In this document: in pieces, positions 33,174 to 52,763 of the stretch
Position numbering within the stretch: the stretch's first letter is position 1
Layout of the letters: each line of letters opens with the position of its first letter
Virus record (IMG/VR): IMGVR_UViG_3300020187_001966
Source of the DNA: a virus
Taxonomy: Duplodnaviria; Caudoviricetes
DNA length: 64,000 nucleotides
Strand: one strand, 5' to 3'
Translations under genes and position numbers: made by a program
Notes under the pieces: generated by a model
Database searches by the model: none
Seen by the model: the letters and a program-made list of their open reading frames with translations, nothing else
Told to the model about the DNA's origin: nothing

Positions 33174-33452
33174 ATGTCAAACAATATGCCAGCCTACATT
33201 GTCACTAACCCTTGCTTAACCGGATTGCACACCAGCAAAGTGTTAACAAAACAAGAATATGCGTCTGCCCAAGAAATTTGGGGTAAGCAAGCATTTGTTG
33301 TTGCGCCTTTCTCAGAATCATTGTATAATACATTGTATGCGCAATTTACACAGTCAAAAGAATTTATCCACAACTTGCTACCTAAAATGAATTCTCCGCA
33401 GTTTATTGCTGCTCACCGCAAATTTTATAATAAAGTAACGCAAAATGTTTAA
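33174..33452 (+). CDS. Hypothetical protein
   Basis: AGGAG SD. Confidence 0.65.
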   Translation: MSNNMPAYIVTNPCLTGLHTSKVLTKQEYASAQEIWGKQAFVVAPFSESLYNTLYAQFTQSKEFIHNLLPKMNSPQFIAAHRKFYNKVTQNV

Positions 33453-34509
33453 TCAAAATCTAAATCGTATCGGGTTTGCGTGTAAATACATGCACCCGGA
33501 CCAAACGCAAAAGCCAAAGATACTTAAAGAAATACAGTCTAAGTATACAGAGCGTAGTACAACTATCACATGGCTTAACCGACAAACTCGTGAGGTAGCA
33601 GAGCAACGCTTATATGAGATTGCTTTTGATAACGTTACTAACTTAGAAAGGTTAATTAGATATGTTGGAAATTTACCAGAACAATTACGTATGGTACGTA
33701 TCGGGTCAAATTTGTTGCCTGCTTATACTCATGGTGATTGGGCTTATTTCTATAGGGAGCCAAGTCTCCAAGCACGGCTCGAGCGAGCATACTCGAGTGT
33801 TGGCGAAATTGCACGTGAGCTTGATGTACGCTTGTCTATGCATCCTGGTCAGTTTACCGTTCTTGCTTCCGATAATCCAGATGTTGTTGAGCGTAGTTTA
33901 GAGGAGTTTGAATACCATGCGGATATCATCAGGTGGATGGGTTACGGTCAGAAGTGGCAAGACTTCAAGTGTAACGTCCACATCTCCGGTAGACAAGGTC
34001 CAGCCGGTATCAAAGCCATCCTTCCAAGACTGTCTACAGAAGCAAGAAACTGTATCACTATCGAAAACGAAGAAAACGCCTGGGGACTCGACGCAACGCT
34101 AGAACTAGAAAAAGATGTTGCTCTTGTACTCGATATCCATCATCATTGGGTGAACAGTGGCGGTGAATATATTAGACCCGACGATGACAGAGTAAAACGT
34201 ATTATTGATAGTTGGCGTGGTGTTCGTCCTGCGATGCACTACAGTGTTAGTCGTGAAGATTTATTGCTTGAACACTCTAGAACACACAAGCCAGACTTTC
34301 CAGAACTTGAAGAGCAAGGCTTTAAGAAGGGAAAACTAAGAGCGCATTCAGACTATTTGTGGAATGATGCTGTAAATGACTGGGCACTCTCACATTGGCA
34401 GTGGGCTGATATTATGGTAGAAGCAAAATGTAAAAACTTAGCAAGTAACCAACTACTACAGCGTCATTTTATGAATACTGATGCGTTTACTGGAAAGATT
34501 GCAGCATGA
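33445..34509 (+). CDS. uvsE: UV damage endonuclease UvsE/UvdE
   Basis: RIGFACK, RLSMHPGQFTVL, TIENEE, LVLDIHHH, HYS, AHSD, MVEAK. Confidence 0.9.
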   Translation: MFNQNLNRIGFACKYMHPDQTQKPKILKEIQSKYTERSTTITWLNRQTREVAEQRLYEIAFDNVTNLERLIRYVGNLPEQLRMVRIGSNLLPAYTHGDWAYFYREPSLQARLERAYSSVGEIARELDVRLSMHPGQFTVLASDNPDVVERSLEEFEYHADIIRWMGYGQKWQDFKCNVHISGRQGPAGIKAILPRLSTEARNCITIENEENAWGLDATLELEKDVALVLDIHHHWVNSGGEYIRPDDDRVKRIIDSWRGVRPAMHYSVSREDLLLEHSRTHKPDFPELEEQGFKKGKLRAHSDYLWNDAVNDWALSHWQWADIMVEAKCKNLASNQLLQRHFMNTDAFTGKIAA

Positions 34510-36269: not shown

Positions 36270-36314
36270 AACGCCCTTGGATAAATACTTTATAATAGTA
36301 ATACTGAGGGCGTT
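36270..36314 (+). promoter_or_regulatory. Late promoter inside an RBS-covering stem
   Basis: AACGCCCT/AGGGCGTT with ATAAATA 36281-36287 in the loop. Confidence 0.65.
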
Positions 36315-36317
36315 TTT

Positions 36318-36695
36318 ATGAAAATAAATGAAGTTACACAAATAGTCGAAAAGACTGAAATTACTCTAGAAGATACACAAGACTTCCACGAAGAGTTTGG
36401 ATATCTGGCATACAGTATAGACGAAGGCGATCTATTTGAAGCAGAGTACCAAGGACGTAAAGTTAAACTAAACAAGCCAATGCGTGGTGATGTTAAGAAG
36501 TTTAAAGTATATGTAAAAGATGGCGACAAAGTAAAAAAAGTAAACTTTGGTCACGGCGGCACAAGTGCTAAACGTCCAACAATGCGTATACGCAAAAGCA
36601 ATCCAAAAGCACGTAAGAGTTTTAGAGCAAGACATAATTGCGATAATCCAGGACCAAAGACCAAGGCAAGATATTGGAGTTGCAGGGCCTGGTGA
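36318..36695 (+). CDS. Basic putative internal head protein
   Basis: MKINEV N-terminus; FE-AEYQGRKVKLNKP...RKSFRARHNC...YWSCRAW. Confidence 0.7.
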   Translation: MKINEVTQIVEKTEITLEDTQDFHEEFGYLAYSIDEGDLFEAEYQGRKVKLNKPMRGDVKKFKVYVKDGDKVKKVNFGHGGTSAKRPTMRIRKSNPKARKSFRARHNCDNPGPKTKARYWSCRAW

Positions 36696-37315
36696 TGCAT
36701 TATACTATCTATAAAATAACTAACCAGATAAATGGAAAATATTACATTGGTAGGCACGCTACTAAAGATGTAAATGACTCCTATATGGGTAGTGGTATAG
36801 GCATTAAAAATGCTATTGCAAAGTACGGTGTTGAAAACTTTACTAAAGAAATTATTGCAACAGCAGACAATACAGATGCACTATGGGACTTAGAATTAAA
36901 AATCGTCAACGAAGATGTAGTGAAAGATACTATGTCTTACAATATGTCGTACGGTGGAAAGCATTACTTACATGGATTAAAACAATACGATTACGATGCA
37001 TTTATAGAGCATCAGCGCAAAGCAGGACAGCAATATGCTAAAAACTTTACAGGAAATTCTAAAGAATGGCATGCCAAGGGCGGTTCTAAAAGTTCTCGTA
37101 TGCGTAGCGAACAATACACGTATCGCATTACTACAAACGAAGGCGTAGAATATATTGTAAACGGTTTAGAATTTAAAGAACTATGTGCAGAGAAAGACTG
37201 GAACTATAATACCTTACACTGGAAGAAAAGCATGGGTAAATATATTAGTAGAGGCAAGCACAAAGGCTTCTTAGTAGAACAACTTAGTACGTATAAGCAG
37301 GAAGTGGTAACATGA
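36695..37315 (+). mobile_element. Free-standing GIY-YIG (Seg-like) homing endonuclease
   Basis: TIYKITNQINGKYYIGRH, YMGSG, F.KEII, YNM. Confidence 0.85.
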
Positions 37316-38457
37316 AAGCAACTGATTTAAACCTGAGTGAAATGCCAGCAATGACTTTACATGGTCCAGATGGGTTCGGACTTACACAATATAGTGGTGA
37401 TGAATATGCCCTAGTAGGCGGCTTTAGAGACGGAGCAAGTAACGCTGGTGAGTTGAGACTAAAGTATCAAATATATAGTCACGCTCTTATTGATGCTAAT
37501 GGCGGTGATTTTGCTAAAGGTGAAATTGGTTATTGTGTTGTAAGAGTAGCAAGTGATGATGGACCAGACCAAGGTGAAATTTTAGGTTTGATTGATATTG
37601 AACTAAAACCAAAGTATAGAAAAAGCGGACACGGCAAAAAGATTGTACGTGATATTGTTGATACAACAAAGTCAGGCAATTTAGATATACACGACATTCA
37701 AAAGAAAGCCAAGAAGTTCTGGGACAAGATGGGTGTTGAGTATGATGCGAAAAAGCCGGGCGCTAAGAATGCAGTACTTAGAAAACAATCTGAAAGTGTA
37801 CTAGACGAAGATATAGCTAGTGTTGCTGAAGTTACGGCTATGGCGGCAGTAGCAGGACTAGCCGCACCAGTAATGATGGCTATGCTTAAAGCGGCATACA
37901 AAACTGGAAAAGGTATTAACGCTATTAGAAAAATCGCAAATCGTGCAGGTGTTAAACTTGCTGATCGTGTAATGGGCGAAGAGCTAGAAGACTTTAATAA
38001 AGACGAACCAAACAAAAGTACAGTAGCAGTGCCTGGATATGGTACTATGAATGTTGATAGTTTGATGAAGAACATTGTTGACCAAACTACACAAATGGTA
38101 AAGCAAATGCAAGCTGGTACACAAGGATTTCGCAATGCTGATTATGCTTTAAATAGTAATAAAGTATTAGCAACCAAAGTAGCAGCATTAGTAAAAGCAC
38201 TAGATGACTTACAAGCAATACGTGCCAAAGGTGGTGCTAACAGTAAAAATATTCAACAAGAAGCAGAAGAAGAACAACAAGCTCTTCCAATTGACGTAAA
38301 CAAAATTATGGGTAATATACAAGAGTTTGAAAGTAAGAAATACATTAATCCAGAAGATGCTGATCTAATGAGACGTGGTGTACAAAGTTTAGCAACACCA
38401 AGACAAACAGTAAACCCTAATGCTATATTACAATTACTAACAATGGTAACAAGATGA
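37312..38457 (+). CDS. Modular putative internal protein with GNAT-like module
   Basis: IELKPKYRKSGHG acetyl-CoA loop, A..FWDKMG; modules separated by xxE sites. Confidence 0.55.
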   Translation: MKATDLNLSEMPAMTLHGPDGFGLTQYSGDEYALVGGFRDGASNAGELRLKYQIYSHALIDANGGDFAKGEIGYCVVRVASDDGPDQGEILGLIDIELKPKYRKSGHGKKIVRDIVDTTKSGNLDIHDIQKKAKKFWDKMGVEYDAKKPGAKNAVLRKQSESVLDEDIASVAEVTAMAAVAGLAAPVMMAMLKAAYKTGKGINAIRKIANRAGVKLADRVMGEELEDFNKDEPNKSTVAVPGYGTMNVDSLMKNIVDQTTQMVKQMQAGTQGFRNADYALNSNKVLATKVAALVKALDDLQAIRAKGGANSKNIQQEAEEEQQALPIDVNKIMGNIQEFESKKYINPEDADLMRRGVQSLATPRQTVNPNAILQLLTMVTR

Positions 38458-38654
38458 AAATCTCTCAGATTATATCAGAAGCAGGTGTTGGTAAGATAAC
38501 CAAATATAACACTACAGTAGATGTTAAGCCTGGCGAAACAGAACGTCAAGCAGCTAAGTTTTTCCCAATGAACAAAGGCGGAAAACCAAAGCCTCTTGGT
38601 GTTCCTGGTGCTACTCCTAATCAAGCATTTAATTTAGGACTAACTAAAACATGA
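38454..38654 (+). CDS. Small putative internal protein
   Basis: MKISQIISE-AGVGKIT. Confidence 0.6.
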   Translation: MKISQIISEAGVGKITKYNTTVDVKPGETERQAAKFFPMNKGGKPKPLGVPGATPNQAFNLGLTKT

Positions 38655-40591
38655 AGATCGATCAAATCACAGAAAACATGAGTCATACTAGTAAACGACT
38701 ACATGACATTGAAAAGGAAAAGGGTGTAAAGCCTGGTACTCCTGAGTGGTTTAAACTGTGGTTTAGTTTACCTTACCTTAAAGAAAGCACAGTTGTAGAA
38801 GGTTACAAACTACAATTAGAACGTGATACTGATATGATGGTATTAAATATTGTTGACACTGCTACAGGCAAGCGTACAGAAGTTCGTGGCAAGGCAGGCT
38901 ATGAGACTAACGGTTATGATAAAAATGACAAACTACATCAGTTACTAGATAAAATTAGTAAAACTGCTAATATCAGTGAACTAATGAACGGTGAACCTGT
39001 TGGTATCAACCCTAAACACCCAGACGGTGCTAGTGCAAAGAAAGCAACGACTAAAGCATTCAATGAAGCAAAAGATGGTCTACCAGTTAAAACACTCAAA
39101 GGATTATACCATGTCGGCACGATGGATTCATCTGAGAAGCGTGATGGCTTCGAGGGTGCAGGATTAAGCGTAAGTACACATCCTGATGCTTGGAAGCAGA
39201 TTGCTAGAGGTCACGTAACAGGTGATACTCACAGTGCTACAAAAGAAGGCAATAAATTCTTAGATGTACATAGTCTTTCAGACGCACACAATAAACAAAT
39301 CAAACAATGGGCAATCGAAAATGGCTACTTAGAACAGCAAGAAACTGTTACAGTATGTTACTATGATGATGAAATGGAAGATGATCTTTGTTCAACTTTC
39401 GACTCAATGGCAGATGCCGAAGCAGAGTATGATGAAGAACTAAAGCATATGGATGTAACAGTAGACAAGGGCGGCATTGTTCCTACTGATAAGCTGAAAA
39501 AAGAAACAAGACAAAATCGTATAGATTCAACAGGTGTGCTAGAGTTTGTACTACCAATATTTGCAGAACAACAAGGACTCGACGGTGTTTGGTGGCAAGA
39601 TAACCTAGATGTCCAGCGATATTCGGCACCACGTGGTGTTATTGTTCCTAGCAAGATTAAGTCTTGGAAGTTCACAGTTAACGAATCAATTACAGAAGCA
39701 TTTGATAATCCTTATTCATATTATTGGGATGATACATATAACGGCGATGACTCTTTTCTAGCTAAAGCTGAAATGGATATGGGCGAACTAATGGTTATGT
39801 TTTCAGTAGGCGAGCCAGGTGAAAGTTGGACTATTGACTTTGCGGTAGACGGATCAATGGACAAAACAGGTGACGGAGATCAGTTTAGAATCTTTGCTAC
39901 AGTAGTTGCAGTTATAAAAGACTGGATGGCTAATAAGGTAGATTTATCTAAAGTAACACAAATTGATTTTAGTTCTGACAAGGACGGCGAGGCAGAAGAT
40001 AGTAGAGCTAAACTATACAAACGTTTTGGTCAACAACTAGCAAGTAAACTTGGATGGAATTTAGAAGTCACAGATAGAGGACAATTTGCTTCCTTTAAGA
40101 TTAAGAATCCAAATGCTCCTGTGAAAGAAGCAGTTAATGAAGCAATAGAAATGAAAATTAGCGACTTGACTATCAGTGATGCTGGTATGGCAATCGCACA
40201 ATCAGTAGGTGGTGGAAGTAGAACAGATGCTCCGTTGGCAGTTACAAAACTTCCATCAGGCCATGTATATCTGGTAAATGGGTATCATAGATTAGTAGAT
40301 GCTATGCAGGCTGGCAAAGATACTGTATCGGTAGAATATGTTCCATATGAAAAAGTAGAAATACTTTGGAAACAAGAACGTGAACAAGATATCAAATACG
40401 GTAAACAGTTTAACGAAAACTTCGCAGACGGTAAAGTAAAAGGCAAAAGCAGACCAGGCAGAGTAAAGAAGTCAGGTGCTAGTTGTAATGGTAGCGTAAC
40501 AGAATTACGAGCAAAAGCAAAAAAAGCCAGCGGTGAGAAAGCAAAGATGTATCACTGGTGTGCCAACATGAAAGCTGGTAAGAAGAAATGA
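38651..40591 (+). CDS. Modular polyprotein-like internal protein (ART-like, GNAT-like, ParB-like, basic tail modules)
   Basis: YHVGT..GLSVS; TGDGDQFRIFATV..SRAKLY; LVNGYHRL; ENFADGK..HWCANMK. Confidence 0.55.
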   Translation: MKIDQITENMSHTSKRLHDIEKEKGVKPGTPEWFKLWFSLPYLKESTVVEGYKLQLERDTDMMVLNIVDTATGKRTEVRGKAGYETNGYDKNDKLHQLLDKISKTANISELMNGEPVGINPKHPDGASAKKATTKAFNEAKDGLPVKTLKGLYHVGTMDSSEKRDGFEGAGLSVSTHPDAWKQIARGHVTGDTHSATKEGNKFLDVHSLSDAHNKQIKQWAIENGYLEQQETVTVCYYDDEMEDDLCSTFDSMADAEAEYDEELKHMDVTVDKGGIVPTDKLKKETRQNRIDSTGVLEFVLPIFAEQQGLDGVWWQDNLDVQRYSAPRGVIVPSKIKSWKFTVNESITEAFDNPYSYYWDDTYNGDDSFLAKAEMDMGELMVMFSVGEPGESWTIDFAVDGSMDKTGDGDQFRIFATVVAVIKDWMANKVDLSKVTQIDFSSDKDGEAEDSRAKLYKRFGQQLASKLGWNLEVTDRGQFASFKIKNPNAPVKEAVNEAIEMKISDLTISDAGMAIAQSVGGGSRTDAPLAVTKLPSGHVYLVNGYHRLVDAMQAGKDTVSVEYVPYEKVEILWKQEREQDIKYGKQFNENFADGKVKGKSRPGRVKKSGASCNGSVTELRAKAKKASGEKAKMYHWCANMKAGKKK

Positions 40592-40806
40592 AGATGTTTT
40601 TTAAAAAGTGGTGGCGCAGTATGTTTCCACAATATATACTTGAAGTAAAACATCGTGGCGTTGAGCGCCGCATACATGTAGTAAAATTTCATAAGAAGAA
40701 TATGAAACGATTGGCAGGTATAAATGTTCATGGTGAGACCTTTGAACTAATGAGTAAAGAACCAATGGATTACTATGTAGTAGAATACAGGGATGATTTA
40801 AGATGA
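40588..40806 (+). CDS. Hypothetical protein
   Basis: Coupled ATGA overlaps. Confidence 0.6.
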   Translation: MKMFFKKWWRSMFPQYILEVKHRGVERRIHVVKFHKKNMKRLAGINVHGETFELMSKEPMDYYVVEYRDDLR

Positions 40807-41441
40807 AATTATCAGAATTATTAAACATCAACTTCCCTCAATTGGAGGAAGTGATGAGTACAGAAGATTTAGAGGACAAAGTCCAAAAACAAAAACAAGA
40901 CGCATTCAATAAAGCTATGCTTGACGCAATGCATCGTCTTGTAATGAGTAAAGACAAAAGAAGTAGTATTGGCAGCTATGCTTTTGATATATCACGTAGT
41001 TTTGGAGGAGTAAGTCCCAAAGAAGTTGAACGTATGTACCGTGACAAATATATGACTGAGGGAGAACAACTCCCTACAATAATAACGCAAACAATGTTGG
41101 ATACACTAGAAAAACATCTAGATAAAATGTTTTCATCAGTTGGCATTGATGTAGAGTTTACACGACACTTTTTAGACCGTGTAAATGATAACAGAAATAA
41201 AACGCAAATTACTCTAAAAGAGCTTGCTATTTTGTTTAAAGACGCTTATAATAAGTATGGTAAGCAAATAGCACAAATGGGTCCAGATGCGGAAGCTGTC
41301 ATTAAAGATATGCGCAGTGATGTTAATCTACCTTTTGTACTAAATTGGGATAGTAGTAATCAAGAGCTAGACTTAGTAGCAAAAACAGTTATGCGTAAAA
41401 AAGACTTCTTTACTCCTGATACAGAGCTTCCGTTAACATAA
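40803..41441 (+). CDS. Two-module putative internal protein
   Basis: MKLSELL; second module FTRHFLDRVNDNRN. Confidence 0.6.
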   Translation: MKLSELLNINFPQLEEVMSTEDLEDKVQKQKQDAFNKAMLDAMHRLVMSKDKRSSIGSYAFDISRSFGGVSPKEVERMYRDKYMTEGEQLPTIITQTMLDTLEKHLDKMFSSVGIDVEFTRHFLDRVNDNRNKTQITLKELAILFKDAYNKYGKQIAQMGPDAEAVIKDMRSDVNLPFVLNWDSSNQELDLVAKTVMRKKDFFTPDTELPLT

Positions 41442-41504
41442 CATGTTATTAACAAATAACAGTTTACGATAAATAACTATATATAGAAAATCCGGAGTGT
41501 CTCA

Positions 41505-41981
41505 ATGAGATTAGAAAAAATACAAACAGCACAACAGGCGCAAGCTAAACCATCAGTGGCAAAAGTAGCTGAAGGTTACGCAGTGCGTGATGTTAATAAC
41601 AAAGAAGTAAAAGTTTTTGAAGACATTGATGTAGCAAAAAGCTATTTGAAGCGTCATATTACAGAACTTAAAGAAGGCCGTGAGCCAGTTGTATACATGA
41701 GTGAAATCATGGAAGGTGTCCTAGATGACACTGACGACGATGGTTGGATGGCAAAAAGTGAACTATACAAACTTTCAAAGTATGCTATTCAGTTACACGG
41801 TATGATCCAAGATAACGAAAATTTAGAACCTTGGGTACAAAGCAAAATCACAAAAGCAGCTGATTATATTAGTTCAGTAAAACATTATATGGAATACGTT
41901 CAAATGACTGACGGACAACCTGAAGTAGTAGACGACATGCCAATGGAAATACCAAACGAATTGCCACCTGAAGGAATGTAA
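41505..41981 (+). CDS. Putative internal protein
   Basis: TAAATA upstream; DDGWMAKSEL..LEPWVQSKITKAADY. Confidence 0.65.
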   Translation: MRLEKIQTAQQAQAKPSVAKVAEGYAVRDVNNKEVKVFEDIDVAKSYLKRHITELKEGREPVVYMSEIMEGVLDDTDDDGWMAKSELYKLSKYAIQLHGMIQDNENLEPWVQSKITKAADYISSVKHYMEYVQMTDGQPEVVDDMPMEIPNELPPEGM

Positions 41982-41983
41982 TA

Positions 41984-43597
41984 ATGAAGTTTACTGATTT
42001 TACTGAAAAAGTTATTGAATCTATTGTTAACGAAGAAGCAGCTATTAAACTTGATTTTGATCAAGTGAGGATAAGAATACCTGCTAACGATAATACTAGA
42101 CCAACTACTGGAGAAGTTATTGATTTAGATTCTCGTCGAGCTGCAGCAAAAGATGCTCTTAGTAAAATGTCAGAAGCAGACAGAAAATCTGCAAACGAAT
42201 TTATTAAAAAGAACAAAACTCTACTACAAAGACTATCGTCTGTAGGAGCCAGATCAGCAGCAAGACATGGTGTAGCAACAATTTCAAGTGTAGCATCAGG
42301 CCCACTTGCGCCAGCAGTAGCAGCAGTATTAAATGTAGCAATGCTAGGTTGGGATTTAGCTGATGCCGGCGTTGAAATATGGGACTGGGCAAAATCAAAC
42401 AATGCTAAAGATATTAAACAAGGTAATGCTGGTCGAGCCTATGGCAATGATTTAGCAATGGTAGTTCCAAGATCACCTAGACAGAATTCAAGAGACGATG
42501 ATGCGTATGAAATAAAACATTTAACTCAACAATCACAATTTGGTGCTGCTGGTATGAGAGATCAAGCTGCTCGATTACTATCACAACGTCAAGCTGAATA
42601 CCGCAGAGATCAACAAGAATGGGACAAAGAGTTTGGAAAAACACACTTAGATAACGGCACAGCAAATCCAGATGCAGGTTATCAAGATAAAATAATGAGA
42701 ATTGCGCAAGCAGGTAGAGATGCTCAAAATAAAGCAAGTGATAACGAGCTTATTAAAAAAGCACAACAAAAACCTCAAGATATTCCTCCTGTTGTTAATT
42801 TTACAAATATTCCACCATTGATCACACCATCGTTTACCCCAGGCACAATTAACAACCCAACTGGAGAATTCACTCCCCCTGAATTTGACCCTAATGCTCC
42901 TGAGTTCCCTGAGTTACCTAAAAGGGGTAAACCATTTAAAGCACCAGAAACACCTATAGAGCCAGCTCCAAAAGGCCCTAAAGTTATAACTAAATCACCA
43001 ACCCAACCAAAAAGAACCGACAAGGATCTGGAAAATCCAATAGTACCTGGAGAATTCACTCCCCCTGAATTTGACCCTAATGCTCCTGAGTTCCCTGATT
43101 TACCTAAAAGGGATGATCCGTTTAAAGCACCAAAGCCACCTGTAGAGCCAACTCCAAAAGGCCCTAAAGTTGTAACTACCCCACCTAAACAACCAAAAAG
43201 AACCGACAAGGATCTGGAAAATCCAATAGTACCTGGAGAATTCACTCCCCCTGCATTTGACCCTAATGCTCCTGAGTTCCCTGAGTTACCTAAAAGGGGT
43301 AAACCATTTACAGAACCAGAGTTGCCAAAAGAATTACCAAAAGAATTACCAAAAGAATTACCAAAAAAGTACACCCCTCCTGCTATAACCCCTAATCCAC
43401 ATGCCGGGATAGTTATTGGGAAAAAAGGTAAAACTGATACTAAGACAAAAACCAAGGAAAAACCTAAAGGCAAGACGACAAGTAGACGTGTTGGTGGTGA
43501 TGCTGGCAGTGGTGATCGCATTAAGTCAACGGCTAATCAAATGAAGTTCAGCCCTATAAATATTAGAGACCCACTAAACTTAAAGAGATATGGATAA
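41984..43597 (+). CDS. Pro-rich repetitive putative virion protein
   Basis: MKFTDFTE N-terminus; 62-aa tandem repeats. Confidence 0.65.
   Translation: MKFTDFTEKVIESIVNEEAAIKLDFDQVRIRIPANDNTRPTTGEVIDLDSRRAAAKDALSKMSEADRKSANEFIKKNKTLLQRLSSVGARSAARHGVATISSVASGPLAPAVAAVLNVAMLGWDLADAGVEIWDWAKSNNAKDIKQGNAGRAYGNDLAMVVPRSPRQNSRDDDAYEIKHLTQQSQFGAAGMRDQAARLLSQRQAEYRRDQQEWDKEFGKTHLDNGTANPDAGYQDKIMRIAQAGRDAQNKASDNELIKKAQQKPQDIPPVVNFTNIPPLITPSFTPGTINNPTGEFTPPEFDPNAPEFPELPKRGKPFKAPETPIEPAPKGPKVITKSPTQPKRTDKDLENPIVPGEFTPPEFDPNAPEFPDLPKRDDPFKAPKPPVEPTPKGPKVVTTPPKQPKRTDKDLENPIVPGEFTPPAFDPNAPEFPELPKRGKPFTEPELPKELPKELPKELPKKYTPPAITPNPHAGIVIGKKGKTDTKTKTKEKPKGKTTSRRVGGDAGSGDRIKSTANQMKFSPINIRDPLNLKRYG
42861..43366 (+). 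repeat. 186-bp tandem repeat (~2.5 copies) followed by 12-bp ELPK repeats
   Basis: CTGGAGAATTCACTCCCCCT at 42861, 43047, 43233; GAATTACCAAAA units around 43319-43366. Confidence 0.9.
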
Positions 43598-43600
43598 GAA

Positions 43601-45421
43601 ATGATACACAAAATAGCAAAACAAATCATAGCAGAAGCTAGACAAAGCAGAACTAATTATGCTGTTACACAACAGCCATATGATAAAATTAAAGCAAATA
43701 TGTACACCATATTTGAATGCTATGCTCGTGGTATTATTGACTGGGACATTTCAAAAACAAAACTACAAAATGTAATTAAAGAGTATGTAAATTTATATCC
43801 ACTAGAAGAGCGTAAAGCTGAAGTTAAAATTATGCGTGAAGAATATAAACGTATCACAACAGACTATAAACTAGCACTAGACGAATATCGTGTAGTTGCT
43901 GAACAAAAAATGACAAGTAGTTTAGTAGCAAAACAAAAACTAGACGAAAGTACAGCGCAACATCACAGTAATGTATTTTACAATGGACGTAATTTAACTG
44001 AATCAGATCTTAAAGATATTGCTACACTTAAAACATGGCAACGTGTAATGGAAGCGTATCCTAACCTTACAACAAAAGAAGAAGAGCTTGTACGTACACT
44101 TGAAAACACATATGATACTAAAGACTTTGAATTTAATCCAAGAGCTGGTCATAGAGATCAAATGGCACATCCAGAAAATCAAGGATTAGGTCCATCAAAT
44201 ATGTCTAGCCCACGTCCCAAGTTACGTCCTAAAAAACTAGCTCCAATGTCAAGTCCACGTCCACAAGCCCGTCCAGCAAACTTACAAATGCGTAATGATA
44301 TTAATAAAGCAGTACAGCAGGCAGTTGGAGAAGGCGATAGCCCACACAAAAAAGGTACAGCAAAGTACAAAGCACATATGGCGGCAATGCATGCTGAAGG
44401 ATATAAAGAGTTGCCGCCAATTAACAGAGATCGTTATCAAGAACGTGACGGTCTAGAAGGACCATTCAGTACACTAAGTGGTAAGGTAGTTTATTATGAT
44501 CCAAAAGAAGGTTCGTACTACGATCCAGACACAGATATGTATATGAGTTATGGCGAATTCAAAGCACTTGACAACGACTATAGTAACATGAAAGACGAAC
44601 GTGACATCGACGTAAAAGAAGAAATGAGCAATGACGAAGTAGATGCGTTCCATCGTGCACTAGATGAACTTGTGCACAAGCACTTAGGTCACAGCTCACA
44701 TGAGAAAGAAATGGACGAAGTTGAAGAAACACTTAGCCCAGAAGAGAAAAAGCAAGTCAATCAAATGTACAACAAAGACGGTACGTTAACTGACATTGGT
44801 AAAAAAGTTATGAGCCAAGGACAAATACAAGATATCCTTAAAAAAGCAATGAAGCAACTTAAAGGTATTGATGCCCAAGCAAAGTTTACACACAGAGATT
44901 TAAATCAAGCAGTTGCTACAATTAATCAAGGTAATATTCCAGGCGCACTACAAGAATTAGTAAATGGTGTAGATGGTCCTGAGCCACAAATACAAGACAC
45001 ATTTAATGACGCACATGATGATTTACAGAGACTTATTAACCCTAAAACAGACAAAGAACTAGATGATGAGTATTGGCAAGACGTATCCGATATGAAAGCA
45101 AAAAGCAGAGCTGGCGTAGAATCAATTGTTCATGATGTATTTGATACAGCACTTGAAGAAATGACAAGCGCAGGTGCTATTGCCAGTGTAGCAACACCAA
45201 TGGGTAAAATGAAACGCCGTAAAGACAGTATTTTTGCTGACAAAGAAACTAAAGGCGATGTAATGACTGAAGCACAGTTTGACGAAGCGGCAGGCGAAAA
45301 AGATGCTTGTTATCGTAAAGTAAAATCACGTTATAAAGTATGGCCAAGTGCTTATGCTAGTGGCGCATTAACAAAATGTCGTAAAGTTGGAGCAGCCAAC
45401 TGGGGAAAAAGTAAGAAGTAA
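43601..45421 (+). CDS. Modular polyprotein-like internal protein
   Basis: Modules such as GLEGPF..YYDPKEG.YYD and EAAGEKDACYRKVKSRYKVWPSAYASG separated by xxE sites. Confidence 0.6.
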   Translation: MIHKIAKQIIAEARQSRTNYAVTQQPYDKIKANMYTIFECYARGIIDWDISKTKLQNVIKEYVNLYPLEERKAEVKIMREEYKRITTDYKLALDEYRVVAEQKMTSSLVAKQKLDESTAQHHSNVFYNGRNLTESDLKDIATLKTWQRVMEAYPNLTTKEEELVRTLENTYDTKDFEFNPRAGHRDQMAHPENQGLGPSNMSSPRPKLRPKKLAPMSSPRPQARPANLQMRNDINKAVQQAVGEGDSPHKKGTAKYKAHMAAMHAEGYKELPPINRDRYQERDGLEGPFSTLSGKVVYYDPKEGSYYDPDTDMYMSYGEFKALDNDYSNMKDERDIDVKEEMSNDEVDAFHRALDELVHKHLGHSSHEKEMDEVEETLSPEEKKQVNQMYNKDGTLTDIGKKVMSQGQIQDILKKAMKQLKGIDAQAKFTHRDLNQAVATINQGNIPGALQELVNGVDGPEPQIQDTFNDAHDDLQRLINPKTDKELDDEYWQDVSDMKAKSRAGVESIVHDVFDTALEEMTSAGAIASVATPMGKMKRRKDSIFADKETKGDVMTEAQFDEAAGEKDACYRKVKSRYKVWPSAYASGALTKCRKVGAANWGKSKK

Positions 45422-45424
45422 TAA

Positions 45425-46279
45425 ATGGGTAACCGGAATCAAAATAGCACAGATTATATTCACGCAGATGAACCAAACATTTTAAATGTTCATAAAGCTA
45501 TGGATTATAATCAGCAAGGGCAACCGCTACTAAGAACAACTGGTAGTAGTTATGATTGGATTATTAACATTAGCGCAGGTGCGGTTGATGGTACTGGTTA
45601 TATTGAAAAGTTCGGCATGAACACTGATGTAGACAGCGACAAAGAAACAATTTGGGACGGTGGAGGTATATATACGTATCTATCCACTGGCGAGAAACTT
45701 TCAGTTACTAGCAGCAGTGTTAATGATAGCGCATCTGGATCAGGTGCTCGTACTGTAGAGATACAAGGTTGTAATGATGCTGGAGAGGTTATTTTAGAAA
45801 CTGTTGAGATTGGTAGTGCAAGTACTCAATTGTTTAAACGTGTGTTTCGTGTAAAGGTTGTAACATCAGGCACAAGCGGAGTTAATGAAGGTATTATTAA
45901 TATTACTAGTCTGGTATCTACAACAATAGTTGCTCAAATTGGAGTTGATGGCACTGGTAGTAATGCAGCAGGACGTGGACAAACATTCATGGCGTTGTAT
46001 ACAGTACCAGTAGGAAAAACAGCATATTTGACACAATGGACTGTTGGTTGTGGTAAGCAAAATACAGATGCTATTGCTACATTTATGGCAAAAACACCAG
46101 CTGGTGCTTGGAATGCTAAAGATATTATTACAGTTAGCGCAACTACATACACTAAAGATTATAAGATTCCAATACAGTTTACAGAACAAACAGATATAGA
46201 AGTACGTGCTTATAGTAGTGTAAACAATTCACTAGTAAGTAGTACGTTTAACTTATTGATAATAGACAACCCGGTATAA
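45425..46279 (+). CDS. Putative virion structural protein
   Basis: Beta-rich, Thr/Ser/Gly; late cluster. Confidence 0.6.
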   Translation: MGNRNQNSTDYIHADEPNILNVHKAMDYNQQGQPLLRTTGSSYDWIINISAGAVDGTGYIEKFGMNTDVDSDKETIWDGGGIYTYLSTGEKLSVTSSSVNDSASGSGARTVEIQGCNDAGEVILETVEIGSASTQLFKRVFRVKVVTSGTSGVNEGIINITSLVSTTIVAQIGVDGTGSNAAGRGQTFMALYTVPVGKTAYLTQWTVGCGKQNTDAIATFMAKTPAGAWNAKDIITVSATTYTKDYKIPIQFTEQTDIEVRAYSSVNNSLVSSTFNLLIIDNPV

Positions 46280-46287
46280 ATATTTAC

Positions 46288-46599
46288 ATGCTTATAGAAG
46301 ACATCATAACAGAAGATTTACGGGCATGGTTCGGCAAAGGCAAAAAAGGCGGGGCCGGCGGAGGTGGCTGGGATCGTTACAACAGCAAAGGCGAACGTGT
46401 TGGCAAATGTGGAGATGGCGAAGGCAAAGGCAAACCAAAGTGTCTAAGTAAAAGCGCAGCCGCTAAACTACGTAATGCTGACAAAAACAAAGACGGCAAA
46501 AAAGACGGAGCAAAAGGTATTGCTACCGCAGTTAAACGTAAAAAATCAAAAGACCCTAATCCTAATCGCAAGGGCAAAGCAAAGAACGTAAAGAACTAA
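46288..46599 (+). CDS. Very basic Lys/Gly-rich putative internal (DNA-binding) protein
   Basis: MLIEDIITE-DLRAWFGKG...KPKCL; TATAAATA 5 nt upstream. Confidence 0.7.
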   Translation: MLIEDIITEDLRAWFGKGKKGGAGGGGWDRYNSKGERVGKCGDGEGKGKPKCLSKSAAAKLRNADKNKDGKKDGAKGIATAVKRKKSKDPNPNRKGKAKNVKN

Positions 46600-46608
46600 G
46601 GAAGTATA

Positions 46609-49050
46609 ATGCCAATTCTAACTAAACGTGAGAGACAAGATGATAAACTTGCTTTAGCAAATGCTGATAGAGTAGCTCGTAATGTAATAGAGCCAGGGCG
46701 TTATACTGATGTAACAGCAGACGCAACTCAACTACCTACACGTTATGCTGTTGGTGATAATGACACCAACAATGTAGTAAATAACCCCAATACAGGCGGC
46801 CTATTACCAGGTCGTCCTTGGAACTCAACAACATCTGTGTATGCAATACTTGCTTTTGAGCCAAAACTAGTTTTTGATTTTACTGGAAATGTATTTAAGA
46901 CAGGCGGTGCAGATAGCACTCTAGCTAACAGTGTGACTCATGCTCGCGCAGGTCAAGCTACGATGGTAGACTCAGATGGTCTTCTCAAATGGGCTCCACA
47001 TAACCTTTTGCCTAGGTCTGAAGAGCTAAATCTGTGGTCTCAAGCAAATGCTGGCGGGGCTGTTGTAGACAATGCTGTTGCTCCAGATGGGACAACCACA
47101 GCGGCTACCTTTACAATTAGCTCTACTAACTTTCATAGTTATATTCGTTCTTTTGTCACATATACTGCAGGAGATATAATTACATTTTCCTTCTGGGTAA
47201 GAAGTGACACTGTAACGATACTGCCGTTTGGGATTAATGGTGGGACAAATCAAGCGAACAATAACATATATACTAATGTTCCAGTAACAAGCACTTGGAA
47301 CTTGGTTGATCTTGAATTCACAGTTGGAGGTAATGACACTTCTCTTTACTATGTAATTGGAAAACAAAGTCAAAACCCTGTATCTAATCAAATAGGTGAC
47401 GTAGAAATCTGGCATCCACACGCTTACCGCAGTGACTTAGGTGGCATGGTGAACAACCCATCACAACCTACAGGCTTTGAAACCTACGCCCCAACAACAA
47501 GTTCTGCTGTTTACCTACCAAGAGTTGGACATCACGTCTACAATGGCTCTGCTTGGGTTAACGAAGGCATCCTCCACGAGAGTGAAGCTAGGACTAACTT
47601 GGTTACTTATAGTAATGACTTTACTCATTCGAGTTGGGTAAAGAATGCAATAATAACCCCAAATGATGCTGTTTCCCCAGACGGGACATCAAATGCTTCG
47701 AAGTTTTCATTCGGCGGAACTGGTTATTTTCAATTCAACCATTCTAGAACCACTGGTCAGACGTACACCATATCAGCTTGGGTTAAGTCTTATGATGGAA
47801 CAGATGAAGCCTTTCAACTTTATGCACAAAATGGTGCTTTTAATCAAGACTTTATAGCAACCTCCGAGTGGCAGAGATTCTCATTTACTTACACAAGTAC
47901 GGGGACTACAGTCAATGGTGATGGCATTGCACGTCCTACTAGCAATATTCCTGCTCTCTTACATGTTTACGGTATACAAATAGAAGCTGGCGCAACCCCA
48001 TCTAGTTACATCCCAACATCAGGTTCAACTGTAACAAGGGCGGCTGAGACACTAACCGTCCCTGCGGCTAATCTGCCTTATCCTACTCCTGTTGAGGTTA
48101 CTGGCACTGAGCTGGTTACTAATGGTACGTTTGATAGTAACACAAATAATTGGACTGCTTTTAATTCCGCATTATCTGTGGACTCTAACAGATTAAAAAT
48201 TGTTAACGATGGAATCTTTGGGACAGCAACCCAACAATTCACTACTGTCTCAAATAAAGTATATTTAGTTACAGCTGATTTAATTCATGGCGGCGCTGTC
48301 GACGGTAGAATACTCATCAATGAAGGACAGTTTGGTGGAGCTTTGTATAATAGCACAATAGTATCATTCGATAAAACATTTTCAATTGTTTTTAAAGCGG
48401 CTAGTCACCTCACTAACATAGTTCTCCAAAATTCTTTTGGTACTTCTGGAGGTCTTGGTAGTACTGGAGATTTTAACTTTTGGGATAATGTATCCATCAA
48501 AGAAATCAACCCTCTCGCTTTGTCTATCCAGATGGACGGTAAGATGACTTATGCTGATAATGGCGCTACTGCAACTAGCAGTAATAACGTGGGCGAAGTA
48601 ACCTTTTTAAAATGGCAAGAGACTAGCAATAAATTTATTGGAGTAGTTCTTAACACACTCACCTCACGAGTAGGGCAAGTTTCGGTAAGACAACGTAATG
48701 CTAGCAGTGGGTTCGATGAAGTTGTGTCAGCCGTTGACGCTTACACCCCTGACACTAACGTACCGTTTAACATTGCATCACGTCATGGCTCTACGTTCAT
48801 CAACGGCGCTCACGAGGGTACACTCCTGACAGCCAACACAACCCCTACGATTCTCCCTGACTTGTCATCTACTGCCTTAGAACTTGGCCAAACCTTCATG
48901 GGTACAATAGCTCAATTCAGAATGTGGGATGAAGACTTAACAGACGCAGGTATAGTTGAAGCAACAGAACCATCCACAGAACCATCATTACAATTAACAT
49001 TTGATGGCTCATCCACAACAAGTTTCACAGTATTAGATTGGAGTGAATAA
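46609..49050 (+). CDS. Receptor-binding fibre/spike with carbohydrate-binding-like domains
   Basis: N-terminal anchor LPTRY..NPNTGGLLPGRPW; EARTNL, APDGT, QIEAGATPSSYIPT. Confidence 0.7.
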   Translation: MPILTKRERQDDKLALANADRVARNVIEPGRYTDVTADATQLPTRYAVGDNDTNNVVNNPNTGGLLPGRPWNSTTSVYAILAFEPKLVFDFTGNVFKTGGADSTLANSVTHARAGQATMVDSDGLLKWAPHNLLPRSEELNLWSQANAGGAVVDNAVAPDGTTTAATFTISSTNFHSYIRSFVTYTAGDIITFSFWVRSDTVTILPFGINGGTNQANNNIYTNVPVTSTWNLVDLEFTVGGNDTSLYYVIGKQSQNPVSNQIGDVEIWHPHAYRSDLGGMVNNPSQPTGFETYAPTTSSAVYLPRVGHHVYNGSAWVNEGILHESEARTNLVTYSNDFTHSSWVKNAIITPNDAVSPDGTSNASKFSFGGTGYFQFNHSRTTGQTYTISAWVKSYDGTDEAFQLYAQNGAFNQDFIATSEWQRFSFTYTSTGTTVNGDGIARPTSNIPALLHVYGIQIEAGATPSSYIPTSGSTVTRAAETLTVPAANLPYPTPVEVTGTELVTNGTFDSNTNNWTAFNSALSVDSNRLKIVNDGIFGTATQQFTTVSNKVYLVTADLIHGGAVDGRILINEGQFGGALYNSTIVSFDKTFSIVFKAASHLTNIVLQNSFGTSGGLGSTGDFNFWDNVSIKEINPLALSIQMDGKMTYADNGATATSSNNVGEVTFLKWQETSNKFIGVVLNTLTSRVGQVSVRQRNASSGFDEVVSAVDAYTPDTNVPFNIASRHGSTFINGAHEGTLLTANTTPTILPDLSSTALELGQTFMGTIAQFRMWDEDLTDAGIVEATEPSTEPSLQLTFDGSSTTSFTVLDWSE

Positions 49051-50671
49051 TATGGGTACTAAGAATTTAAATAGTGCAACAGACTTAATAACATTCACCA
49101 GAGCATCAGGTGGTACAGCTTTAAGAAAAATTAGCTACGGTAACGAGTTAGTTACTAATGGTGACTTTTCGAGTGGCACGACAGGTTGGGTAGATGGGAC
49201 AAACTGGTCAGGGGCTTTAGATGCTTCATCTGGCAAGCTGTTGATTACCAGTGACTCTAGTAATGGCTACGGTTGCGCCATTCAAGGTGTCCCACTTGTT
49301 GTAGGCAAGGCGTATAGATTAACAGGCTCCCGTAGGGCGGTCTCTGGTGGCAATCCAGCTATAGGTGTATCAAATTCGGCGGGTGCTGTGCAAGTGGTAT
49401 TACTGAGTGGATCAGCCTCAACAGTAACTAATTATTTTTCTGTGACATTTGTGGCCTCGTCTACTTTTAGCCTATGCTTATTTAATCAATCCCCAACAAA
49501 CGGCAATTCTTCTGAGTTCGACAATATCTCAGTCAAAGAAGTCCTCTTCGACCAAGCTGATGGCACACTCCAACTTTTTAACCATGGTAACAACGTACCT
49601 CGGATTGAGTACGATGCTACTGGTGCAGTCAAAGGCTTACTGATTGAAGAAGCTAGGACTAACCTATACCTTAACAGTTCAGATACTAGCACTAACAGTT
49701 CATTTGGTATTACAAAAACTTCAGACTCTGCGGTTAGCCCTGACGGTACAACAACTGCTGATTTGATAACCCCGGATACATCATATCCTAGACATTTATT
49801 TCAGTATTCTAGCTCCTACAGTGCAGGTGATGGTAGCAAGGAGACTTATAGTTTCTATGCAAAATCCAATGGCTATAACCTCATTGAAGTATCTCAGAGA
49901 AATCAAAATGGTGGCACAATAACTAAGTTTGATTTAAGTGCTGTAACTGCAACGACAACTGGTGGTACTGAAATATTAAAGTCTATAGAGGATGTGGGTA
50001 ATGGTTGGTACAGATGTTCTGCGGCTTACATAACGTCTAGTGTAAGACCATACCCTGCTATTGAGTTTCTCGATACAGATGGTTCTCAAGGATTTGTACC
50101 TGATGGAACTTCAGGTATCTACTTTTGGGGGCATCAACTAGAAGCTGGCGGCTTCCCTTCGTCCTACATCCCAACATCAGGTAGCACAGCTACTAGGGCG
50201 GCAGATATTGCTACTATTCCTACGAGTGCCTTTGGGTATAACCAGAAGGTTGGTAGTGTTGTTGTGGAGTTTAATAGTAATAAACCTAATAACGAGCAGT
50301 ATGGTGCTTTCGGGTTAAGTGATGGTAGTCCTACAAACCGAATAGCTTACTACGCAACGTCTGTTAACACGTTAGTTGTTACAACTGCTGGTGTCGGACA
50401 GGTAGAACTAAACGCGGGTTTAAGAGTTACAACCTCTGAACTTGTTAAGTTTTCTGCTGGATATGCCGAGAATGACTTTGCCGCTTCTCTCAATGGCGCA
50501 ACAACGGTCACTGATACATCAGGAACGGTTCCTTCTGGAATATCTTCGTTAGGGATAGGTCACTATTACCCCCCTAACCCAAGTTCTAACCTGATAAACG
50601 GTCACATCAAATCAATCAAATACTACCCTCGCAGACTAACTAATGCACAATTACAGGAGCTAACAACATGA
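49043..50671 (+). CDS. Second receptor-binding fibre/spike, paralogous to the preceding gene
   Basis: FTRAS, GLLIEEARTNL, SPDGT, QLEAGGFPSSYIPT, LamG-like C-terminus. Confidence 0.7.
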   Translation: MNNMGTKNLNSATDLITFTRASGGTALRKISYGNELVTNGDFSSGTTGWVDGTNWSGALDASSGKLLITSDSSNGYGCAIQGVPLVVGKAYRLTGSRRAVSGGNPAIGVSNSAGAVQVVLLSGSASTVTNYFSVTFVASSTFSLCLFNQSPTNGNSSEFDNISVKEVLFDQADGTLQLFNHGNNVPRIEYDATGAVKGLLIEEARTNLYLNSSDTSTNSSFGITKTSDSAVSPDGTTTADLITPDTSYPRHLFQYSSSYSAGDGSKETYSFYAKSNGYNLIEVSQRNQNGGTITKFDLSAVTATTTGGTEILKSIEDVGNGWYRCSAAYITSSVRPYPAIEFLDTDGSQGFVPDGTSGIYFWGHQLEAGGFPSSYIPTSGSTATRAADIATIPTSAFGYNQKVGSVVVEFNSNKPNNEQYGAFGLSDGSPTNRIAYYATSVNTLVVTTAGVGQVELNAGLRVTTSELVKFSAGYAENDFAASLNGATTVTDTSGTVPSGISSLGIGHYYPPNPSSNLINGHIKSIKYYPRRLTNAQLQELTT

Positions 50672-51914: not shown

Positions 51915-52763
51915 ATGGCAGTAGAAGATTTTGAATTTGAATTCACAGAAGACATGGTTATTGAGATGCTTCGTGGCAATGACGAAGCTGAAGATTGGTA
52001 TGACGCAATGTGTGAAATCCTTCCTCTATGGGAAGTAGATACACCAGCACGAGTAGCAATGTTTATCGCACAGTGCGGACATGAAAGTAATAACTTTAGA
52101 GTGTTGAGTGAGAACCTCAACTATAGCGCCAAAGCACTAGATGCTATTTTTGGCAAGTATTTTAAGAGAGCAGGTAGAGATGCGGAACCTTATCACAGAA
52201 AGCCTAGAAAAATTGCGAATGTTATTTACGCAAATAGAATGGACAACGGCGATACCGATTCCGGAGATGGTTGGAGATTCAGGGGCGGTGGCATTCTACA
52301 ACTTACAGGCAGATACAATTATACAAAATTCGGAGAAGACGTCGATATGTCACCAGAAGCGGCAGTCGAGTACGTCAGAACAAAAAAAGGCGCCTTAGAC
52401 TCAGCATGTTGGTTCTGGGACACAAACGGCCTAAACAAGTATTGTGACAGTCGTGATGTTAAAGGTGCTACTAAACGTATTAACGGCGGCTACATTGGAC
52501 TAGAAGATCGTAAGAAGCATTATGAACATGCTATGGAAGTTCTAGGCGGACACTGGGAACCAGCACAAATGGTATACGAAACTATTCGTGTAGGCTCACG
52601 TGGACCAACAGTACGTGCTGTACAAGAAGAATTAGAAATCGGGGCTGATGGTGTTTTTGGTAGAGGTACTGAAGCACACATTAAGCACTGGCAAGAAGAG
52701 AACGGACTTACGCCAGACGGTGTTATGGGGCCTGTTAGTTTAGCAATGATGTTTGGAGAATAG
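51915..52763 (+). CDS. GH19 endolysin with C-terminal peptidoglycan-binding domain
   Basis: FIAQCGHES, ENLNYS, FRGGGILQLTGRYNY, INGGYIGL; ADGVFG/PDGVMG PG-binding repeats. Confidence 0.9.
   Translation: MAVEDFEFEFTEDMVIEMLRGNDEAEDWYDAMCEILPLWEVDTPARVAMFIAQCGHESNNFRVLSENLNYSAKALDAIFGKYFKRAGRDAEPYHRKPRKIANVIYANRMDNGDTDSGDGWRFRGGGILQLTGRYNYTKFGEDVDMSPEAAVEYVRTKKGALDSACWFWDTNGLNKYCDSRDVKGATKRINGGYIGLEDRKKHYEHAMEVLGGHWEPAQMVYETIRVGSRGPTVRAVQEELEIGADGVFGRGTEAHIKHWQEENGLTPDGVMGPVSLAMMFGE

Follow-up and report, generated by a model that had tools for sequence, protein, structure and literature searches.

Candidate capsid-delivered polyproteins encoded by a variable locus of a T4-related marine jumbo phage

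The internal proteins of T-even phages are a diverse set in which a capsid-targeting sequence is the sole common feature (PMC3012670), and this sequence has been suggested as a general protein-loading route of T4-like phages (PMC9026906). Polyvalent proteins are multidomain, packaged proteins that bear ART, GNAT and ParB domains and whose processing is ascribed to peptidases embedded in them (PMC5512222). Here we describe an array of genes that resembles both, located at positions 36,318 to 46,599 of IMG/VR virus record IMGVR_UViG_3300020187_001966; the window is the whole stretch of 64,000 nucleotides of this record that was analysed. We consider it likely that this array represents the internal-protein (head cargo) locus of a marine jumbo phage related to T4, in an elaborated form that encodes polyproteins, and that its products enter the capsid, are cleaved into parts and are delivered together with the DNA. 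A first-pass annotation, made from the letters of the window, had proposed such a system. Its interpretation is supported in part: the portions that can be tested on sequence stand, and packaging, cleavage and ejection (injection, in its terms) are steps that we infer.

The open reading frames (ORFs) of the array are given below, with lengths in amino acids (aa); a slash marks a predicted cut.

36318..36695, + strand: ORF A, 125 aa; leader MKINEVTQIVE (residues 1-11), acidic spacer (12-41, net -9) and basic module A2 (42-125, net +21, two Cys)
37312..38457, + strand: ORF C, 381 aa; leader MKATDLNLSE (1-10), GNAT-like module C1 (11-166), hydrophobic C2 and helical C3 (224-381)
38454..38654, + strand: ORF D, 66 aa; leader MKISQIISE (1-9) and a basic 57-aa module
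38651..40591, + strand: ORF E polyprotein, 646 aa; leader MKIDQITE (1-8) and six modules, E1 (9-50), E2 (51-139), E3 (140-349, ART fold), E4 (350-497, GNAT fold), E5 (501-589, ParB-like) and E6 (590-646, basic, two Cys)
40803..41441, + strand: ORF G, 212 aa; leader MKLSELL, module G1, junction YMTE86/G and module G2 (87-212)
41505..41981, + strand: ORF H, 158 aa; possible member, with a conserved core after SE67 or IME70/G
41984..43597, + strand: ORF I, 537 aa; leader MKFTDFTE (1-8), hydrophobic stretch, Pro/Glu-rich 62-aa tandem repeats and basic tail (net +11)
43601..45421, + strand: ORF J polyprotein, 606 aa; leader MIHKIAKQIIAE (1-12, ending …QIIAE/A), module edges at 244, 266, about 340-356, 520 and 557/562, and basic tail J5 (563-606, two Cys)
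46288..46599, + strand: ORF L, 103 aa; leader MLIEDIITE (1-9) and a basic Gly/Lys-rich module (net +20, two Cys)

Eight of the 12 ORFs in 36318-46599 start with a leader of 8-12 residues that ends in hydrophobic-x-Glu, and the N-termini quoted by the first-pass annotation are all present at the ORFs to which it had assigned them (A, C, D, E, G, I, J and L). Leader ends at residues 8-12 read IVE, LSE, ISE, ITE, FTE, IAE and ITE, which are of the gp21 type, (L/I/V)-x-E. The strict pattern ^MK[IALF][NTSD][EDQ][VLIF] is found in six array ORFs versus none of the roughly 90 remaining ORFs of the window; it was composed after the sequences had been viewed, and the independent checks are related contigs and the E3 domain family. 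The array proteins were compared by tblastn and blastp with a related set of 158 viral loci. Among 337 distinct module-bearing ORFs of these loci, 39% carry a strict leader (versus 7% of other ORFs), and the proportion is still 31% where homology begins past residue 20. The leader consensus is M-[KR]-[IL]-x-[ED]-[IL]-x-E, with a modal length of 8 and with I or L at P3 in 119 of 142 distinct leaders from relatives. In the E3 family, the domain occurs bare, directly behind a short hydrophobic-x-Glu leader (e.g., MRINEILNIVE/, MRAQEFITE/, MRQFINIIE/, MRYQELLE/), or within proteins of up to 3238 aa. Because the same family occurs in all three settings, the leader appears to act as a portable tag.

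The closest parallel is with T4 IPI, IPII, IPIII and Alt. IPII and IPIII (NC_000866) begin with MKTYQEFIAE/A, a leader of the same kind, and its likeness is seen in …KQIIAE/A of ORF J and in MRAHEFIAE/A of a relative. As in T4, a short leader ends in hydrophobic-x-Glu, a gp21-family protease is encoded in the clade, small basic proteins and an ART-type enzyme (T4 Alt is an ART) form the predicted cargo, and the locus is variable, with the leader as the only shared element (PMC3012670, PMC9026906). Unlike the array proteins, those of T4 are essentially single-module and are trimmed of an N-terminal propeptide (in Alt, of a C-terminal one too), whereas here a single gene encodes up to six unrelated domains, every joint bears a cutting motif and modules are exchanged. 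There is also a parallel of position. In T4 (NC_000866 64939-66997) the order is denV (UV repair), ipII, ipIII and e (lysozyme), and in the window it is UvdE (UV repair; 33445-34509), the array and an endolysin (51915-52763). This may reflect an old shared locus or coincidence.

All internal hydrophobic-x-Glu sites listed by the first-pass annotation exist, and homology boundaries fall on most of them: at 45/50, 139, 345/349, 493/497 and 589 of ORF E, at C166 and G86, and at J266 and J557/562 (the boundary at J520 is weakly supported). Domain boundaries lying away from these sites had been named as one finding that would refute the first-pass reading; when examined, the boundaries do coincide with the sites, and it is this coincidence with module edges that makes the Glu sites meaningful. 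On the query side, 51% of 638 internal edges of high-scoring segment pairs (HSPs) lie at most 4 residues from hydrophobic-x-Glu, versus 26 ± 7% expected for randomly placed sites (0 of 2000 permutations reached the observed value). The figure for hydrophobic-x-Asp, a motif of equal density, is only 18%. On the subject side, the motif is directly upstream of 54% of 349 internal module starts versus 21 ± 2% at positions picked at random; with D, K or Q in place of Glu there is no enrichment, and with N a mild one (23% versus 12%).

In the strongest test of the junctions, modules E2, E4 and E6 were anchored on their own first residues and every distinct upstream context was inspected. P1 is Glu in 84 of 84 contexts (25/25, 11/11 and 48/48, respectively) and P3 is hydrophobic in 72 of them, while P2 is free and the sequence further upstream is often unrelated. 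Whole relic leaders occur at none of the 84. The junction consensus, [VLI]-x-E/[GNDA]-[YF], differs from that of the leader in that P6 is not hydrophobic, P4 is not acidic and V is favoured at P3. The constancy of the Glu across unrelated contexts and the difference between junction motif and leader argue that selection acts on the site itself, and speak against neutral leftovers of fusion. One fusion relic is visible, AIE/MKISDL at E500/501. A fixed DNA-level linker serving as a recombination site was considered and rejected, as leaders and junctions share no words of at least 10 nucleotides (nt) among themselves; codons vary freely, and thus the signal lies in the peptide rather than in a DNA recombination site.

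Predicted cuts also coincide with the ends of independently occurring domains. The E3 family (searched with E140-345) comprises 1091 cluster representatives at E ≤ 0.001 that align end-to-end (query 4-203 of 206), and the domain spans exactly FNE/A to VNE/S. The start of A2, after LFE41/A, is the start residue of free-standing 80-86-aa proteins of Pelagibacter phage Kolga and Roseobacter phage CRP-902, which are not T4-like and whose A2 homologues have neither leader nor acidic spacer. The neighbours of the A2 homologue in Pelagibacter myophage HTVC008M show no clear leaders.

We regard it as unlikely that the leader loads these proteins into the head while the internal sites stay uncut, so that whole multidomain polyvalent proteins travel in the manner of the N4 virion RNA polymerase. 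Some polyvalent proteins are indeed transferred unprocessed (PMC5512222), T4 gp21 leaves some matching sites uncut (PMC9026906), and VNE345 lies within a predicted strand. Such a reading would nevertheless have to account for the Glu at P1 and the hydrophobic P3 whatever lies upstream, which needs selection on the site, and for the match between junctions and the natural termini of free-standing relatives. A 646-aa chain of six domains would also be hard to thread through the tail channel without unfolding. In AlphaFold models, E3 and E4 are compact and their joints are in coil.

Cutting of packaged proteins after Glu has a precedent in phiKZ, 201phi2-1 and SPN3US, where many head-internal proteins are cleaved by a gp21-related protease and ejected; some inner-body proteins of the phiKZ-like giants are cut at several sites (PMC5694885, PMC10052503). 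Those phages are of a different lineage, with a small residue at P3 (A/S/G-x-E; PMC5694885) and propeptides of more than 100 residues, whereas the array has V, L, I, M, F or Y at P3 of the junctions, I or L in the leaders, and leaders of 8-12 residues.

Judged by its genes, the source of the window is an uncultured marine jumbo phage related to T4. The family-B DNA polymerase encoded in the window has 44-48% identity to those of Atu_ph07, Phosso, GAP32 and CBB-type jumbo myoviruses. A DNA-level comparison with cultured phages gave no near-identical match, an exact 40-mer taken from the window had no match in IMG/VR, and a protein search with ORF E among cultured phages gave one weak match only. 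At least 22 contigs, drawn from several metagenomes, encode an identical 646-aa ORF E, and thus we conclude that the phage is real and widespread. The carriers include ENA ERZ23491292 KRUG19-1 scaffold_9 (304 kb) and ERZ807186 NODE_71 (188 kb), in which the gene order is that of the window. Among IMG/VR relatives, polymerase identity is 77% for G004 (a 172-kb fragment), 63% for G005 and 56-57% for G001 (342.6 kb, complete, with terminal repeats), G002 and G003.

Across the 158 related loci the same pieces recur in other orders, which bears out the proposed shuffling: related phages have the modules rearranged, joined or separated. With ranges given as residues of the named ORF, E340-503 precedes E42-346 in L001/L002, a leader is followed by E134-346 and E491-645 in L095, and a leader is followed by E48-139 and E585-646 in L023. 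In L117, E501-645 is a separate ORF that starts at M501. ORF D, standalone here, is the N-terminal module of 350-560-aa proteins in L130, L105, L092 and L148, and A2 is the C-terminal module of 448-450-aa proteins in L001/L002. Module C3 stands alone behind its own leader in G004, L085 and L105, G2 comes first and G1 last in L001, L002 and L101, and the ORF L module is elsewhere either standalone or C-terminal. The flanks of the locus are conserved in G004, with a Lon-like ATPase and UvdE on one side and the endolysin and polymerase on the other. Between these flanks, a single 490-aa gene joins D, E6-139, G20-211 and E566-646 (residue ranges, as above), and a 63-aa gene that has a leader of its own encodes J549-606 separately.

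The first-pass annotation had suggested that the modules look like GNAT, ART, ParB and RNase-like domains and basic DNA-coating peptides. E3 has an ART-superfamily fold. Its AlphaFold model (predicted local distance difference test, pLDDT, 94.5) gave 13 top VIA-align rows that are all of the ART superfamily, including MbcT (Z 7.6, root-mean-square deviation (rmsd) 3.7, 124 aligned), diphtheria toxin (Z 7.0) and AcrIF11 (Z 6.2); there is an AFDB match to a RES domain (E 2.5e-14) and an Atlas lead to ART-PolyVal. Residues H15, E29, S34 and R189 are invariant in 56 relatives and may correspond to catalytic residues of the H-Y-E or R-S-E type. Pfam assigned no family to these 56 relatives. E4 has a GNAT fold (pLDDT 79.5): all 50 top VIA-align rows are GNATs, with EctA at Z 9.6, rmsd 3.3 and 118/144 aligned, and AFDB also returned GNAT rows. 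Profile searches with E3 and E4 against PDB sequences found nothing, and Foldseek of E3 against the PDB gave no match at E ≤ 0.001; both folds were recognised only by VIA-align and AFDB. Module C1 gives weak GNAT signals (Pfam GNAT at E 0.002, below the cut-off; PHROG acetyltransferase at E 0.0045; an R-x-x-G-x-G motif). The ParB assignment of E5 holds as a lead only, to ParB/sulfiredoxin-like proteins: Atlas gives 0.96 to ParB_N and sulfiredoxin clusters, the G-x-H-R motif is present as NGYHR (DGHHR in a relative), and Pfam gave no match. The RNase-like module found no evidence in any search.

A domain resembling the E3 fold (window 39068-39685) at Z 5.6 is present in the pre-ejectosome protein of cyanophage A4 (PDB 9k3a chain B, 1421-1602). 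It is a solved example of an ART-like domain within an ejected phage protein.

Modules A2, D1, E6, I3, J5 and L1 are strongly basic, as had been claimed, with net charges of +6 to +21, and the very basic two-Cys peptides probably ride on DNA. Exactly two Cys occur in each of A2 (36441-36692), E6 (40418-40588), J5 (45287-45418) and L1 (46315-46596), and these four may have a small mini-fold in common, either metal-binding or disulfide-based. Homologues of A2 and L1 in cultured phages are annotated as HVA1 family and DUF6321, respectively. The acidic spacer of ORF A (36351-36440, residues 12-41), which runs from IVE11/ to LFE41/, may serve as a propeptide that masks charge. Among PHROG families, phrog_7595 matches A 42-125, phrog_23027 matches G 90-206, and separate stretches of ORF J match separate families. 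The mature array parts have no detectable similarity to PHROG families annotated as internal head protein.

Like the polyvalent proteins (Iyer et al., 2017; PMC5512222), array proteins combine at least two disparate domains per chain (in ORF E, ART, GNAT and ParB-like), their delivery with DNA is predicted, and the E3 domain also occurs inside 1000-3238-aa proteins. Unlike them, the array has no domain of the kind predicted to process polyvalent proteins from within (embedded zincin-like or other peptidases): none was found in any array ORF by Pfam or PHROGs, although a very divergent one could escape. Addressing and processing appear to have been handed to a T4-type leader and to a head protease acting in trans. 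A further likeness is to phage P1 Dar and MuF-fused toxins, in which anti-defence or toxin proteins are loaded into the capsid and delivered with DNA (PMC12810830, PMC5512222). These use other loading routes and have no T4-type leader or junction grammar, in a comparison made by literature only. The first-pass description of the array as an undescribed system is too strong, as the capsid-targeting sequence (PMC3012670, PMC9026906) had been described before, and so had packaged polyvalent proteins (PMC5512222). The novelty lies in combining a T4-type leader and predicted gp21-type processing with polyvalent-type polyproteins; a literature search, of incomplete coverage, found no description of T4-type leaders on multi-enzyme polyproteins with protease-site joints.

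The gp21-type protease that the first-pass annotation invoked is present as Peptidase_S77 in the relatives G001, G002 and G003 and is not in the window; this genome presumably encodes it elsewhere. The clade's head module follows T4 order: Portal_T4, a 71-72-aa leader gene, a 295-308-aa acidic protein, the protease, a 371-372-aa scaffold-position protein and Gp23. The N-terminus of the clade's Gp23 bears LFE/G, LLE/G, VLE/N and LNE/S. Thousands of variants of the protease are conserved to at least 89%, and they occur on hundreds of Tara and other contigs. One variant, P0185, was followed as a route to array-bearing scaffolds and abandoned, its contigs being those of other clade members. The 71-72-aa gene starts with MKYSDI[TK]E/N (L171 11352-11570, which is G001 191352-191570; L189 1626-1841), and its location at the T4 gp67/gp68 position links the leader, on the evidence of gene order, to prohead core assembly.

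That gene, placed between portal and protease and carrying the same leader, is also an argument for a reading that we find distinctly unlikely, in which the leader-bearing proteins would serve in the prohead core or scaffold, as T4 gp22, gp67 and gp68 do, and be degraded and expelled at maturation rather than delivered. T4 core proteins are cut into many pieces (PMC9026906), and the acidic spacer of ORF A and the acidic ORF H would suit such a role. The ART, GNAT and ParB-like folds, however, make no sense for a scaffold, and the array lies outside the head module. Its content varies greatly between conserved flanks, unlike essential scaffold genes (at least 89% conserved in the clade), and its basic modules resemble the T4 internal proteins, which remain in the head. 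It is very improbable, and already disfavoured, that the motifs are unrelated to the capsid, with MK starts as a translation-start preference of an AT-rich phage and Glu junctions as generic linkers or neutral fusion leftovers: Lys after Met is common, 23% of background ORFs have hydrophobic-x-Glu by residue 14, and E500/501 is a fusion relic, but the full leader is confined to the array (6 versus 0), closely matches the T4 sequence, and recurs both on related modules of other phages and as an addition to a domain family whose members are otherwise bare, while junctions are unlike leaders, contain no relic leaders (0/84) and are enriched most strongly for Glu and not for Asp, Lys or Gln.

Several points weigh against assigning the array to head cargo. 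The phage is uncultured and the array is known from sequence alone. Peptidase_S77 is absent from the 64-kb window of this genome, and the nearest relative, G004, is a fragment that lacks the head module. In G001, a complete relative, only 7 genes have a strict leader, and the system thus differs in size between phages; the leader of ORF H is atypical. Hydrophobic-x-Glu is common by chance, at about 1 per 40 residues, and the HSP edges counted above are non-independent events. Recombination could also carry the constant Glu along with each module, as a piece of the exchanged unit. VNE345 ends a predicted beta strand and may be poorly accessible, and the Z values of the E3 fold matches are middling (5-7.6).

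If the array does encode head cargo, its genes would be made late, and the 8-12-residue leader, like the T4 capsid-targeting sequence, would bring each protein into the prohead scaffold core. A gp21-type prohead protease (Peptidase_S77) would then cut after hydrophobic-x-Glu, removing the leader and severing the polyproteins at their junctions, and the separate products of about 5-25 kDa would remain in the DNA-filled head and exit through the tail with the DNA. The predicted cargo would include an ART-superfamily domain, GNAT-fold domains, a ParB/sulfiredoxin-like domain and basic two-Cys peptides. One leader would load several modules in fixed proportion, and the locus would evolve by fusing, splitting and swapping modules at the junctions.

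Whether this extends to a general two-part grammar we regard as evenly balanced. In such a grammar, a portable 8-residue address and a hydrophobic-x-Glu joint would let T4-related jumbo phages rebuild their cocktails of delivered proteins; any domain placed behind a joint would become cargo, and the head protease would free units that can be ejected. Given how abundant the clade is in the ocean, such a grammar would amount to a major means, unstudied to date, by which marine bacteria are taken over or their defences countered in the first minute. If the array proteins are loaded and cut as predicted, leader and joint motif would allow the delivered proteome of uncultured T4-like and jumbo phages to be listed from sequence only, and the listed proteins would be those that act before any phage gene expression. 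The list would point to new anti-defence or host-takeover enzymes, such as the ART-superfamily family with more than 1000 relatives and no Pfam model. The diversification of cargo would be explained by module exchange at protease sites, and the T4 idea of expression, packaging and processing would extend to multi-protein loads.

Late expression of the array is plausible, based on upstream boxes:

36281..36288, + strand: late-promoter-like box NATAAATA, 37 nt before ORF A

The same box is found 36 nt before ORF H (41469), 45 nt before ORF J (43556) and before several structural or lysis genes. The exact TATAAATA was rejected as a late-promoter marker, as its frequency across the window is at chance level and not enriched.

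The leader-bearing ORFs, consecutive according to the first-pass annotation, are not strictly so. The run is broken by ORF H and by three other genes:

36695..37315, + strand: GIY-YIG (Seg-like) homing endonuclease between ORFs A and C, not part of the array (phrog_314, E 7.7e-31; Pfam SegE_GIY-YIG)
40588-40806, + strand: ORF F, 72 aa, basic, without leader, in the same place in at least 5 relatives
45425..46279, + strand: ORF K, virion/tail-fibre-like, without leader, not part of the array (phrog_8198, E 6e-61)

The membership of ORF H in the array is uncertain; the protein is acidic, starts with MRLEKI and has no Glu site by residue 12. ORF I has few relatives among the related loci. Its interior (42861-43366) contains 2.5 copies of a 186-bp unit at 90% identity, which codes for the Pro/Glu-rich 62-aa repeat, followed by 3.5 copies of a 12-bp unit (PKEL). 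ORF L has cyanophage relatives, and homologues of ORF K in cyanophages are annotated as virion or tail-fibre protein. ORF K and two tail-fibre-like genes (813 and 542 aa), together at 45425-50671, are absent at the same position in G004. These genes resemble a host-range cassette that was inserted between array gene L and a phrog_3577 gene. Also encoded, at 25485-27719 (+ strand), is a large two-AAA+ protein of an 'ATP-dependent protease' family (phrog_4871, E 1.9e-246), which is present clade-wide at 42-74% identity.

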